Shown in pieces: positions 18,412 to 28,062 of a stretch of DNA of 30,537 bases (the stretch's first letter is position 1; the number at the start of each line of letters is the position of its first letter). Below the pieces are notes generated by a model that saw only the letters and a list, made by a program, of their open reading frames with translations, had not been told where the DNA came from and made no database searches. The stretch lies in the NCBI GenBank assembly GCA_041576165.1, contig JBFGLM010000052.1, positions 1 through 30,537 of the forward strand, read 5' to 3'. A program made the position numbers and the translations under genes. The DNA comes from Acidimicrobiia bacterium. GTDB lineage: Bacteria > Actinomycetota > Acidimicrobiia > Spongiisociales > Spongiisociaceae.

Positions 18412-19458
18412 TTGATCCACCTCGACACCGATGATCCGATCGAAGCTTGCTTCGAACGCGACTGGACCGACGGGCTTCCGGTCGTTCCTCCGACGCCCGA
18501 TCGGGTCGAACGCATGCTGGGTTCTGCGGTCGACCGCGCAGGAGAGATTGTCGCCGTGCTGCCCCCCGGCGGGGGAGAGGCCACGCTCGAAAGGATCGCC
18601 GCGAACGCCGTCATGGCAGGATGCCGTCCCGAAGCGTTTCCCGTAGTCGAGGCGGCTGTCCGCGCCATCGCCGATCCCGCCTTCCAGCTAGAACGAGTCC
18701 TCACGACTCTCCACTCGCGCAGTCCCATGGTGGTGGTGAGCGGTCCGGTGGCGGGGGCGCTTGGCATGAATGGCGGGTTCTCGGCGCTAGGGGCCGGCAA
18801 TCGCGCCAACGCCACGATCGGCAGGGCGGTGAACCTGGTGTGCCGTTCCATCGCCGGAGCTCGGCCGGGCGGCCTCAACCCGGCAACCCTGGGACATCCC
18901 GGATCGTTCACGTTCTGCTTGACCGAGAACGTGGCCGATTCGCCTTGGCCGCCGATCCATACCAGCTTCGGCTTTGACAGGAGTGAGTCGGTCGTATCGG
19001 TGTACGCAGCGGATGCCCCGGTCTGCATTGCCGAGGTGGCCCGCCTCGAGTCGGCGGTGCTCCTCGAGTTGCTGGCGGCTGCCGTGGCGCTGCCGGGAAC
19101 GTACAACGCGTTGCACCGTCAGGACCTTTGGCTGGTGTTGTCGCCGACGCACGCCTCGGTTCTGGACGGCGCCGGCATCGATCGGGAATCGCTGGCACGG
19201 CATCTCCACGAGCAAGCCAGGATCCCGGCGCATCTGGTACCCGCAGAGCGCATCGCCGGAGGGGAGCTGTTCGAGGGTACGCCATCTGCGATCACGCTGG
19301 CTGCCCTCGCCGAGGGGGCGGTGCCCGTGGTGGACGATCCGGCACGGGTGCGTGCCGCCGTGGCGGGCTCGCGGCTCGGCGGCTACACGGCAGTGATCTT
19401 CGGGTCGGGAGTCACCGTGAGCGTTGCAGTGCCGGCGGCGGGAGGGAGCGGAGGGTGA
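18412..19458 (+). CDS. Conserved uncharacterised protein (DGLPVVPPT family), partner of UGSC-family (seleno)proteins
   Basis: WTDGLPVVPPT..RV..ML, IAANAVMAGC.P, GNRANATIGRA, ATLGHPG, EN...SPW. Its stop overlaps the next start (GTGA). Confidence 0.8.
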   Translation: MIHLDTDDPIEACFERDWTDGLPVVPPTPDRVERMLGSAVDRAGEIVAVLPPGGGEATLERIAANAVMAGCRPEAFPVVEAAVRAIADPAFQLERVLTTLHSRSPMVVVSGPVAGALGMNGGFSALGAGNRANATIGRAVNLVCRSIAGARPGGLNPATLGHPGSFTFCLTENVADSPWPPIHTSFGFDRSESVVSVYAADAPVCIAEVARLESAVLLELLAAAVALPGTYNALHRQDLWLVLSPTHASVLDGAGIDRESLARHLHEQARIPAHLVPAERIAGGELFEGTPSAITLAALAEGAVPVVDDPARVRAAVAGSRLGGYTAVIFGSGVTVSVAVPAAGGSGG

Positions 19459-20039
19459 ATCGCATCGTGCTCGTCGATCCGGTAGCGGCTGCGGCTATGG
19501 CCCCGTCGCCCGAGGAGGCTCTCCGCCCAGTGGGTCCGGGTCCGGTCGCCCTGGCCGACGCGATGCTGAACCCATCAGCGGAGTGGGGGGATGGAATCCT
19601 CGACGCTGTCGATTACTCAATCCGTCGGGGGGATCGATCGATCCGGACAGAACGTGTGCGCCGGAGCCATGGGGTCGACTCCCCGGGTCCCGAAGCCTGG
19701 GCTTCGGCGATGGCCGCCGTCTACAGGGCGATCGTGATCGCGGCAGGCGACTGAGGCACCTGCTCGTCGCGCAGTGTGCGCGACGTCGCATCCGCCCGTC
19801 GCCTGGGTGTCCCGGCGGTGGCGATCCTCACCGCCGAGCTGGAGAGACTCGCCGTCGACACTGCTCGGGCGACGGGGATCGATCCGATCGAATGCACCGT
19901 TACCGTGGGCACTCCGTTGTTCGGGTTGTCGCGGTCTGCCGTCGCCAGCCAGGCGTCGATCGCCGCCGACGCCGCGGCTGTGCGACTCGGCGTCGCCCAA
20001 CCCGCCGACCACAAGCCGGATGAGTCTCGACGCGTTTGA
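19455..20039 (+). CDS. UGSC-family selenoprotein (U-G-T-C variant), Sec at codon 100, 194 aa
   Basis: The 3' part of ORF 19128-19754 and ORF 19776-20039 are one frame split by TGA at 19752-19754: AIVIAAGD-U-GTC-SSRSVRDVASARRLGVPAVAI. GTG 19455 has a GGAG-rich RBS. A hairpin follows the UGA. Confidence 0.85.
19765..19785 (+). promoter_or_regulatory. Candidate bacterial SECIS element
   Basis: CGTCGCGCA-GTG-TGCGCGACG: perfect 9-bp stem starting 10 nt after the UGA, apical loop beginning GU about 20 nt from the UGA. Confidence 0.75.
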
Positions 20040-20062
20040 CGCTGTGACTCGCTCAACGGTAT

Positions 20063-20099
20063 GTTCGATTAGCAGCGAACGGGCAAGCGTTCGTATCGT
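20063..20099 (+). promoter_or_regulatory. Candidate operator GTTCG-N8-CGAAC-N8-GTTCG abutting a TATCGT -10-like hexamer upstream of the ABC operon
   Basis: Half-sites at 20063-67, 20076-80 and 20089-93; TATCGT at 20094-99. Confidence 0.35.
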
Positions 20100-26068: not shown

Positions 26069-27331
26069 ATGAATCTCGTGATCACGGGAGCCGTCCTCAT
26101 CGATGGCACCGGAAGGGATCCGACAGAGAACGCCGTGGTGGTGGTCGAGGATGGGACGATCGTCGCAGCAGGTCCGGCCGACTCGATCGATCGGGCCGAC
26201 GGCAACTACCACGAGATCGATGCCGCGGGCGGATTCGTGCTCCCCGGGCTCTTCAACATGCACGAGCACCTCGCGTATCGGGAGATCGTCGGGCAGCCGT
26301 CCAAGATGATCGGCGACCGAATCCTCACTGCGACGACGGCAGTGCGCAATGCGCTGAACGGTCTGTCGCGCGGGTGGACGACAGTGTGCGATATGGCATC
26401 GCCCTATCGCGTCGCGGCCACCATGCGTGATCTCATTGCCGCCGGAGACGTGATCGGACCCCGGGTGATGGCGGCCGGGACACCAATTTCCGTCACGGGC
26501 GGGCACGCCACCGGGTCCGGCGTGTTGTGCAGGGAGGCCGACGGGCCGGACGCGGTGCGGGCGGCGGTCCGGGCCAACTTCCGGGATGGTGCCGACTTCG
26601 TGAAGGTGATGGCGAGCCATGACCCCTACTGCATGCCGGGCCACGAACAGACTCGGGCCGAGATGGGTCCCGATGAAATCCAGGCCGCCTTCAGCGAAGC
26701 CCGCCGCTGGGGGAAGCTCACCACCTCCCACGTGATGGGAACCGAGGCGATCGGGAACGTGCTCGATGCCGGAGTCGACATTCTGCACCACGGAACCTAT
26801 CTGGACGAGGCCCTCGCGGCGCGCATCGTGGAGGCCGGGGCTTTCTTCTGTCCCACGGCAAGTGCCTATCAGCGCCAGACGATGAACCCGCTCTTCGGGC
26901 GGGGCGGGGCGTGGGCCGATGCCCACGACGCCCTCGTCGCTCCCCACGCCGAGTCGCTTCGTATCGCCGTGGCCGGCGGGGTGAAGATCGTCATCGGCAC
27001 CGACAGCACCGGCTGGTACGCCGAGGACGTCGCCATGTTGCGGGAGGCGGGTATGAGCCCGATGGGCAGTCTGCTGGCCTGCACGTCGGTTCCTGCTTCG
27101 GCTCTGGGTCTCGGCACCCGACTCGGGACTGTGGAACCGGGCAAGATGGCGGATTTGGTGGTACTGGGATCCGATCCGCTGGCCGATTCCTACGCTCTCG
27201 ACCATGTTCAGATCGTTGTCGCCGGCGGGATTGTCCACGATCCGGCAAGCCTCCGCATCGAGACGGACCGGTCGACCCGGTTTGTAGATCACCGCCGTCA
27301 CTCGACGCCGACCCGAGAGGAACCGACATGA
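26069..27331 (+). CDS. Metal-dependent amidohydrolase (prolidase/imidazolonepropionase-like subgroup)
   Basis: PGLFNMHEH, TGGH, GADFVKV, SHVMG, HHG, GTDS, GTVEPGKMADLVV. AGGAGG RBS. Confidence 0.92.
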   Translation: MNLVITGAVLIDGTGRDPTENAVVVVEDGTIVAAGPADSIDRADGNYHEIDAAGGFVLPGLFNMHEHLAYREIVGQPSKMIGDRILTATTAVRNALNGLSRGWTTVCDMASPYRVAATMRDLIAAGDVIGPRVMAAGTPISVTGGHATGSGVLCREADGPDAVRAAVRANFRDGADFVKVMASHDPYCMPGHEQTRAEMGPDEIQAAFSEARRWGKLTTSHVMGTEAIGNVLDAGVDILHHGTYLDEALAARIVEAGAFFCPTASAYQRQTMNPLFGRGGAWADAHDALVAPHAESLRIAVAGGVKIVIGTDSTGWYAEDVAMLREAGMSPMGSLLACTSVPASALGLGTRLGTVEPGKMADLVVLGSDPLADSYALDHVQIVVAGGIVHDPASLRIETDRSTRFVDHRRHSTPTREEPT

Positions 27332-28062
27332 CAAAGACGATCCGGTTCGAAGTCGCACGACCGGGTGGACGGAACGAGAGGGTGGAGCTTCCCGTCGCGC
27401 GGGTCTACAACACCGGATCAGCCACGCGTGACCCTGAGGCCGCCAGGGCCCACCAGGAGGAGGTCGCCAAGATCGGGATCTCGATCGCGTTCAACGTGCC
27501 CTCACCCCGCATCTACCCGGTGGCCGCGGCGCAGCTCGTCACGGACGACGAGATCGACGTGCTCCACCACCGGACGTCGGGCGAGGCTGAGGTGGTGCTG
27601 CTCCAGGTCGAAAACGAGCTCTATGTCGGGGTGGGATCGGACCACACCGACCGGGCGCTGGAGACCATCTCGATACCGTGGTCGAAGCAGTCGTGTCCCA
27701 ACGTGATGGCGCCCCGGATCTGGCGATGGGAGGACGTCGCCGCCCGGTGGGACGAGTGCGTGCTCAGCTGTGAGATCGACGGAAGCCCCTACTCGACCGT
27801 CGGGGTGGATGTCTTCACTCGCCCCCACGATCTCCTCGGGCAGGTGGCCGAGCGGGTCGATCTCCCAGACGAGGGATTCGCCCTGTTCTGTGGCTCCTAC
27901 GCATCCCTCGACAAGACGATGCGCTACGGCGAGAACTGGGGCATCCGGCTCGACCATCCTGACACTGAAATGTCGATCCAGCACTCGTACCGCGTCGTCG
28001 ACTTGATGCAGGAGATCCACGAGGACTACCGGGTCCCCGTGTTACCGGAGGAGCTGTCGTGA
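27328..28062 (+). CDS. DUF2848 family protein (FAH-like fold)
   Basis: RD..A..HQEE, P..YPV, TSGEAEVV, VGVGSDHTDR.LE, SKQSCP. ATGA overlap with the amidohydrolase stop. Confidence 0.82.
   Translation: MTKTIRFEVARPGGRNERVELPVARVYNTGSATRDPEAARAHQEEVAKIGISIAFNVPSPRIYPVAAAQLVTDDEIDVLHHRTSGEAEVVLLQVENELYVGVGSDHTDRALETISIPWSKQSCPNVMAPRIWRWEDVAARWDECVLSCEIDGSPYSTVGVDVFTRPHDLLGQVAERVDLPDEGFALFCGSYASLDKTMRYGENWGIRLDHPDTEMSIQHSYRVVDLMQEIHEDYRVPVLPEELS

Follow-up and report, generated by a model that had tools for sequence, protein, structure and literature searches.

The closest described relatives of the gene examined here are the UGSC-containing proteins, a selenoprotein family described in 2008 by Zhang and Gladyshev in PLoS Genet (PMC2398784), entered in Pfam as PF24696 and in NCBIfam as NF041046, and listed with the latter accession in PMC13188914. 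Of the selenoprotein families predicted in aquatic metagenomes it is, according to PMC2398784, one of the most abundant, with 255 selenocysteine (Sec) and 21 cysteine (Cys) sequences in GOS, and that paper already put into print the pairing of Sec with Cys forms and a fusion to a domain named Unknown_1. What is already known, and has been in print since 2008, is the family, its selenocysteine insertion sequence (SECIS) and its fusion partner. The window, by which we mean the whole 30,537-nucleotide stretch analysed here (contig JBFGLM010000052.1 of assembly GCA_041576165.1, an Acidimicrobiia bacterium), carries a member of this family at 19455-20039. We consider it very probable that the single in-frame TGA of this gene, at 19752, is decoded as Sec in a SelB- and SECIS-dependent manner, giving a small redox protein that works with a translationally coupled partner. 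The features on which this proposal is built are the following.

19455..20039, forward strand: putative selenoprotein gene of the UGSC family, 194 codons and a stop, Sec being codon 100, with a match to PF24696
19752..19754, forward strand: UGA proposed to be read as selenocysteine U100, in a column that holds TGA or Cys in homologues; Cys103 completes the U-x-x-C motif
19761..19763, forward strand: TGC codon of Cys103, the second residue of the U-x-x-C motif
19765..19785, forward strand: SECIS hairpin with a 9-bp stem and the loop GUG, assessed by folding, by pair counts in 39 sequences and by a Cys-form control

The locus resembles the described family in its full-length domain, in Sec at the same column followed by x-x-C, in the invariant Ser+7 and Asp+10, in a SECIS hairpin in the same register and in an Unknown_1 partner that is adjacent or fused. 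It differs in its motif, which reads U-G-T-C-S-S-R-S-V-R-D in the window and U-G-S-C-x-S-C-S-V-H-D in the main branch, so that Arg stands at both +6 and +9 instead of Cys and His; this divergent Arg/Arg branch with U-G-T-C, which scores below the NCBIfam cut-off, is what is particular to the window. The initial annotation of this DNA had named a known but functionally uncharacterised UGSC family with Cys homologues, which agrees with the Pfam and NCBIfam entries, with the description of 2008 and with the Cys forms found here. Its label of a hidden selenoprotein is apt for gene callers only, the family itself being present in both Pfam and NCBIfam.

The reading frame across the internal TGA

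Translated with TGA as Sec, the frame is open from GTG 19455 to the stop TGA at 20037-20039, and its sole internal TGA, at 19752-19754, stands in the context V-I-A-A-G-D-U-G-T-C-S-S-R-S-V-R-D. Sequence and translation therefore agree with the initial annotation on a single frame with one internal TGA in a UxxC motif, and also on UGTC followed by SSRS, whereas its statement that no further Cys follows is incorrect, as Cys147 is present, albeit not conserved. GC content by codon position is 0.76/0.57/0.73 before the TGA and 0.71/0.61/0.80 after it, with 0.73/0.55/0.77 in the gene upstream, and this coding pattern is not present in codon-position GC of the intergenic stretch beyond 20039. Two upstream features bear on the start codon.

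19441..19445, forward strand: GGAGG, a candidate Shine-Dalgarno-like site read from the sequence, 9 nt ahead of GTG 19455
18412..19458, forward strand: partner gene for a 348-residue 'Unknown_1' protein, whose stop TGA at 19456-58 overlaps the UGSC start

The start at GTG 19455 is supported by this GTGA overlap (GTG 19455 with TGA 19456-58) together with the GGAGG, by the PF24696 match, which begins at residue 7 of the protein and profile position 3, and by the alignment of the N-terminus with a 73%-identical database fragment, P0122. The TGA is not an assembly slip, since the contigs of four runs from four studies agree over both the TGA and the hairpin, with no listed difference at 19752-19785; as the window itself may derive from one of the four, the runs are not all independent. 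Across the four-run contigs the gene's sole listed variants are 19803 C>T, which is synonymous at Leu117, and 19873 C>T, which gives Thr140Met.

As had been anticipated, gene callers split the gene, and translation table 11 returns two open reading frames (ORFs), 19128-19754 and 19776-20039. Relatives are kept in the databases as such halves, P0122 (99 residues) ending ...AAGD and P0126 (87 residues) beginning at the codon that matches 19776, and this would fit two separate small genes, 19455-19754 and 19776-20039, with the hairpin as an attenuator or a mere by-product of the codons, the more so as GTG 19776 could in principle start translation. That codon, however, sits within the hairpin, and one Pfam domain spans the junction: PF24696 scores 69 bits (cut-off 25) with the read-through protein, and as residues 7-176 correspond to profile positions 3-168 of 172, the domain runs across the TGA. 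Cys-form homologues and fusions are likewise continuous at the junction, and in the predicted fold, which is one compact domain, the break would fall in the middle of a strand-loop-helix unit. We regard two genes at this site as very improbable, and return to a single recoded gene in what follows.

Family branches and the selenocysteine column

By its Pfam match the window gene is classed as a UGSC family member, yet a divergent one. A genome search of the source bin G000 recovers it at 62.1 bits to PF24696 with one TGA inside. The same bin holds a second UGSC gene (L014, C8:28043-28543) that scores 138.7 bits, has the canonical U-G-S-C-V-S-C-S-V-H-D with one in-frame TGA, and is followed downstream by a partner homologue with an ATGA overlap. 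Among 60 sampled genomes, 28 of the same family and 32 of other families in the order, PF24696 is matched in 19 of the former and in none of the 32 latter; all 24 full-length matches in the same-family genomes contain exactly one TGA, a 25th match being cut by a contig end. Three branches can be told apart by translation, ALAD-U-GSC-x-SCSVHD, GLGN-U-GACTAWSCHD and the window's GD-U-[GA]TC[ST][ST]RS-x-RD, the last of which may also be written U-G/A-T-C-x-x-R-S-x-R-D. The window's branch is shared by L037 (G023:C42, 39% identical) and the metagenome locus L042, all with TGA at the same codon. A scan of genome contigs gave only the near-identical contig L039, and a scan of metagenomes gave L040 and L041 (both the same sequence as L037) and L042, so that the independent Sec-form orthologues of this branch found number only three (window/L039/G319, L037 and L042), in addition to Cys forms and fusions.

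At the level of the class Acidimicrobiia, the window-branch profile matched 139 of 401 sampled genomes, and 136 of the 150 class-level matches listed carry a TGA while 14 have no stop. Judged from these profile matches, Sec-form UGSC is common in Acidimicrobiia, and the earlier claim that Sec use is uncommon in actinobacteria does not hold for this class.

The residue found at the Sec column in other proteins is the more direct guide to the meaning of the TGA. A word-indexed protein search with the read-through protein found no match, whereas an exhaustive HMMER search of 1.84 billion protein representatives returned 75 hits, and 15 of these were chosen for alignment with the window protein: three N-terminal fragments (P0122, P0131, P0133) all ending exactly ...GD, that is, at the TGA position, one C-terminal fragment starting from the codon that matches 19776, and 11 full-length proteins. 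Cys occupies the Sec column in ten of these 11 (for example ...GD-C-I-T-C-S-S-R-S-V-R-D) and Trp in none. The initial annotation had proposed a search for continuous homologues with Cys or UGA at this codon, and had held that a residue such as Trp would speak against Sec; TGA forms and Cys forms are what the search brought out. Across 34 aligned sequences U/C100, C103, S107 and D110 are invariant. When these 34 alignment members were run through hmmscan at E<=10, PF24696 was found in 34/34 and no GRDB family (GrdB/PrdB selenoprotein B) in any, and a profile search of Protein Data Bank (PDB) sequences for the UGSC family gave 0 hits.

The SECIS hairpin and the decoding machinery

The hairpin begins exactly 10 nt past the TGA and consists of nine Watson-Crick pairs (19765-19773 with 19777-19785) closed by the loop G19774 U19775 G19776; numbered from the U of UGA, the loop G and U come at positions 23 and 24. 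These are the positions that we take the loop G and U of the Escherichia coli fdhF SECIS to have as well. Like that element, the hairpin lies immediately 3' of the UGA within the coding sequence and exposes G and U in its apical loop; it differs in lacking a bulged U in the stem and in having a loop of 3 nt rather than 4, the whole stem being a perfect, GC-rich 9-bp helix. Folded alone, the 21-nt hairpin has a minimum free energy (MFE) of -14.8 kcal/mol (z -3.32), a value equalled or bettered by 0 of 200 shuffles, and the 49 nt from the UGA reach -23.6 kcal/mol (z -2.66), for which 1 of 200 does as well. The bacterial SECIS (bSECIS) model, as set out in the legend to Fig 2 of PMC13188914, takes a loop of 3-9 nt, an upper stem of 4-16 bp, a UGA-to-loop distance of 16-37 nt, an MFE of -7.5 kcal/mol or lower and a G at loop position 1 or 2, after which G or U is usual. 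The window hairpin agrees in every respect, with a 3-nt loop, a 9-bp stem, G then U, a spacing of 19 nt and -14.8 kcal/mol. No Rfam family passes its gathering threshold anywhere in the window (0 hits), and a limit relaxed to E 10 in the region of the hairpin brought up chance matches alone.

Conservation of the structure was followed in 39 distinct Sec-form sequences, aligned without gaps from the TGA to +42. A22, G23 and U24 are invariant, 85.8% of the cells in helix columns 14-22 with 26-34 are paired, and the five inner pairs are paired in 39/39. At three pairs, 18-30, 19-29 and 21-27, both partners have changed in compensation; pair 19-29 changes from U-A to C-G in five sequences, the window among them, and pair 21-27 from C-G to G-C in five. 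The covariation score is 0.146 compared with 0.062 for shuffles, a value reached by 0 of 500 shuffles, and pairing falls to 8-56% when the 3' arm is shifted by 1-3 columns. Two rows, L069 and L072, come from unpublished genomes, and as they have the commonest pair at every position they add no covariation. The 9-bp stem with a GU-starting loop 10 nt downstream, put forward in the initial annotation as bacterial SECIS geometry, is thereby upheld both by the bSECIS comparison and by covariation.

Two of these changes also alter the protein. The swap U19-A29 to C19-G29 turns codon +6 from UGC (Cys) to CGC (Arg) together with codon +9 from CAC (His) to CGC (Arg), and is found in two branches, the window's and that of L048/L071 (window 19770-19781; alignment columns 19-21 and 28-30). 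The second swap, C-G to G-C, goes with a change of Cys+6 to Trp.

Relatives that have no TGA serve as a control. There are 13 such family loci, of which 10 have the Cys motif, L066, L070 and L091 being outside the search pattern. The Ser codon of the loop is AGU in 39/39 Sec forms and in only 1/10 Cys forms (AGC in seven, ACG in one, UCG in one), and the hairpin window has a median MFE of -12.4 kcal/mol in the Sec forms, compared with -4.7 kcal/mol in the Cys forms. Hairpin pairing is kept in Sec-form relatives and decays in Cys-form relatives.

These data also bear on whether the gene is a nonsense pseudogene, in which a Cys codon would lately have mutated to TGA and so inactivated the gene, leaving at most a 99-residue product. 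Family Cys forms do exist, and the window gene scores lowest of the family matches in the relatives, at 62 bits versus 93-142. A recent mutation is nevertheless hard to reconcile with orthologues of 39-73% identity (L037, L042 and the fragments P0122, P0131 and P0133) that share the TGA at this codon, with a hairpin that is the most stable of the 39 Sec forms and keeps the invariant AGU, and with a TGA that is fixed in contigs from four studies. Furthermore, the C-terminal half keeps the coding GC pattern and still matches PF24696 when taken alone, at 27 bits. A pseudogene is on this evidence highly unlikely, and a functional Sec codon remains the reading that we prefer.

Decoding of this codon as Sec further depends on the host. 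The source bin G000 (161 contigs, 96.5% complete, 7.5% contamination) has two selA and two selB above cut-off, selD, and two tRNA-Sec with the anticodon TCA. The window's contig recurs as G319:C41 in G319, a bin of another family with 1% contamination, where the window-branch profile scores 345.3 bits, compared with 348.4 for the window's own gene; L039 and the window differ by 8 ungapped mismatches in about 6.58 kb. G319 has selA, selD with a TGA, tRNA-Sec, and a selB homologue that adjoins selA (53.9% identity over 462 residues). A check for selA, selB, selC and selD had been advised from the outset, their absence being named as the result that would count against Sec; selA, selB, selD and tRNA-Sec are found in both bins that carry the contig. 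As the contig is present in G000 and G319 and the machinery in both, the organism that owns it can decode Sec. The tRNA-Sec contig G000:C145 is 99.1% identical to G319:C113, and the two selA/selB loci of G000 are only about 69% alike. An in-frame TGA is also present in the selD of three genomes, at G000:C1:171385-172317 (L003), G319:C34 (L077) and G023:C88 (L078), from which SelD itself would be a selenoprotein here.

A variant code or near-cognate suppression might instead place Trp, Cys or Arg at the UGA, and low-level UGA read-through does occur in bacteria. However, TGA is the stop of 15 of the 17 Pfam-supported ORFs of the window, the UGSC gene and its neighbour included, which excludes a general reassignment and makes the recoding site-specific; the Sec pathway is complete and accompanied by a canonical SECIS; and of the 11 full-length homologues aligned, ten have Cys in this column and none has Trp. 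To insertion of another residue we give almost no weight, and the pseudogene, the two genes and the other residue taken together hold only a small part of the probability.

The Unknown_1 partner and a model for the pair

The 348-residue partner protein has no Pfam or NCBIfam hit. Its homologues are numerous, with 5481 at E<=0.001 among 8000 scored candidates, and nearly all are named 'hypothetical protein'. A partner homologue adjoins the UGSC gene on the same strand at 54 of 55 loci (52 of 53 when two unpublished loci are left out), and the sole locus that departs from this offers only about 150 nt of flank. Natural fusions of the partner with PF24696, P0033 and P0034, carry Cys in the Sec column (...GD-C-V-T-C-...-R-G-V-R-D) and belong to the window's branch, while a third fusion, P0092, ends ...AIGD, from which it would be a Sec-form fusion cut by the gene caller. 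The partner's A-x-N-x-V-M-A-G-C motif occurs in the 'UGSC/Unknown_1' fusion alignment given as Fig S1A of PMC2398784, and on the strength of this figure the partner can be equated with the Unknown_1 domain. Cys71, Cys169, His247 and several Gly, Pro and Arg are invariant among 33 aligned partner sequences. A PDB sequence search with the partner gave a single hit, at E 0.53. One homologue, P0095 (427 residues), has an N-terminal PF02515 (CoA-transferase family III) piece, a possible hint of acyl-CoA chemistry. At the L037 locus (about 384-1471) the partner lies in two frames, the N-terminal part running to 1298 and the C-terminal part to 1471, the result of a frameshift or else of a fault in the assembly.

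The AlphaFold2 model of the UGSC protein, built from the 34-row alignment, has a predicted local distance difference test (pLDDT) of 88.6 and a predicted template modelling score (pTM) of 0.82, with alternating strands and helices, and places Sec100 between strand 92-96 and helix 101-116. Foldseek gave no match at E<=0.001. In VIA-align the best match is a de novo designed protein (Z 12.1, root-mean-square deviation (rmsd) 4.4, 129 aligned), followed by unrelated flavodoxin-like, PurE, LarB, cobalamin-binding and LacI-type domains. The predicted fold is a common three-layer alpha/beta sandwich, flavodoxin-like, where PMC2398784, in its lines on the fold, has 'likely Trx-like'. With thioredoxin-fold UxxC/CxxU selenoproteins (Trx-like, Prx-like, SelW-like) the model shares a Sec-x-x-Cys at the N-terminus of a helix that follows a strand, which suggests selenenylsulfide redox chemistry; it differs from them in its parallel-sheet three-layer sandwich, and thioredoxin is absent among the Foldseek matches listed and the 50 VIA-align entries listed. 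The partner model (pLDDT 87.2, pTM 0.89) has no Foldseek match at E<=0.001 and no chain with Z>=5 among 48,161, its best chain being the N-terminal domain of a class I fumarate hydratase (Z 4.8, rmsd 5.1, 170 aligned), a match too weak to use. The structure search of the ESM Atlas returned only unnamed clusters and one UGSC-fusion cluster at 0.88.

Beyond the partner the surroundings vary, and 146 flanking ORFs at 49 other loci revealed no constant third gene beside UGSC and its partner. Only the U-G-A-C branch is constantly flanked, with an AtuA-family gene (PF07287) on one side and, on the other side beyond the partner, an acyl-CoA dehydrogenase, at 6 of 6 loci (L031, L032, L033, L035, L036 and L038). 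In the window the upstream neighbours are a glyoxalase, an HpcH aldolase, a hydrolase, MFS transporters, MmgE/PrpD and an OYE-type reductase. Downstream of the UGSC gene lies an Opp/Dpp-type ABC transporter (SBP_bac_5, two permeases and two ATPases), and further on an amidohydrolase, a DUF2848 protein and a luciferase-like monooxygenase. The SBP_bac_5 gene probably starts at GTG 20149, and a promoter-like site ahead of it, at 20036-20065 (TTGACG, 18 nt, TATGTT), begins at the UGSC stop codon; no terminator-like site was seen between the two genes. The longest DUF2848 ORF (26911-28062) overlaps the amidohydrolase gene (26069-27331) by about 420 nt, and because its Pfam match begins at residue 169 its true start is probably much later.

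We propose the following sequence of events for Sec insertion at UGA 19752. The hairpin at 19765-19785 would recruit SelB carrying Sec-tRNA(Sec), upon which the UGA would be decoded as selenocysteine and not as a stop, yielding the 194-residue UGSC selenoprotein. The prediction for this product is a small alpha/beta protein of flavodoxin-like fold, with Sec100 at the end of a beta-strand and the N-terminus of a helix and Cys103 one turn on, an arrangement that would suit a redox-active selenenylsulfide pair. The UGSC gene would be translationally coupled to the upstream gene for the Unknown_1 protein, with its two invariant Cys, and the two proteins would most likely act jointly as a two-part oxidoreductase. 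The data show membership of the family, the structure and conservation of the SECIS, the Sec machinery, the homology of Cys and Sec forms, and the pairing and fusion of the two genes; incorporation of selenium, the redox chemistry, a physical complex of UGSC and partner, and a substrate for the pair are what we infer.

Several observations weigh against this proposal or narrow it. The match to the NCBIfam equivalog NF041046 is 61.4 bits, below the curated cut-off of 125, which marks a divergent branch that is not filed as the equivalog. The chemistry of this branch, which has Arg and Arg in place of the main-branch Cys+6 and His+9, could differ from that of the main branch, and one full-length homologue, P0128, has Gly at the Sec column. 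The covariation sequences are kin and the stem is coding, and part of the signal could reflect coupling at the protein level; as Arg/Arg is also kept by Cys-form relatives of the window's branch, which have no SECIS, the Cys/His-Arg/Arg coupling may have been driven by either the RNA or the protein. G000 is a mixed bin, and one of G000 and G319 probably holds mis-binned contigs, of which the window's contig may be one, though both candidate hosts have Sec machinery. Finally, the fold is generic, and with unrelated flavodoxin-like proteins as its best matches the structure indicates no function.

Going one step further, and tentatively, UGSC may be the selenium-bearing small subunit, and Unknown_1 the large subunit, of a widespread undescribed two-part oxidoreductase. 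The window's branch would then be a variant in function: a single compensatory exchange of U-A for C-G within the SECIS stem would have turned a Cys/His pair next to the active site into Arg/Arg, the RNA signal and the surroundings of the active site having co-evolved; we hold this as a possibility somewhat short of probable. For annotation, the locus means one gene rather than two hypothetical ORFs, the same error being stored for its relatives, and it supplies a clean Sec-versus-Cys control for SECIS. It also adds to the evidence that UGSC is always accompanied by a single unnamed partner, for whose predicted fold no relative has been solved. The abundance of UGSC stands in contrast to a family without an assigned function, and to this family the locus adds a divergent Arg/Arg branch.

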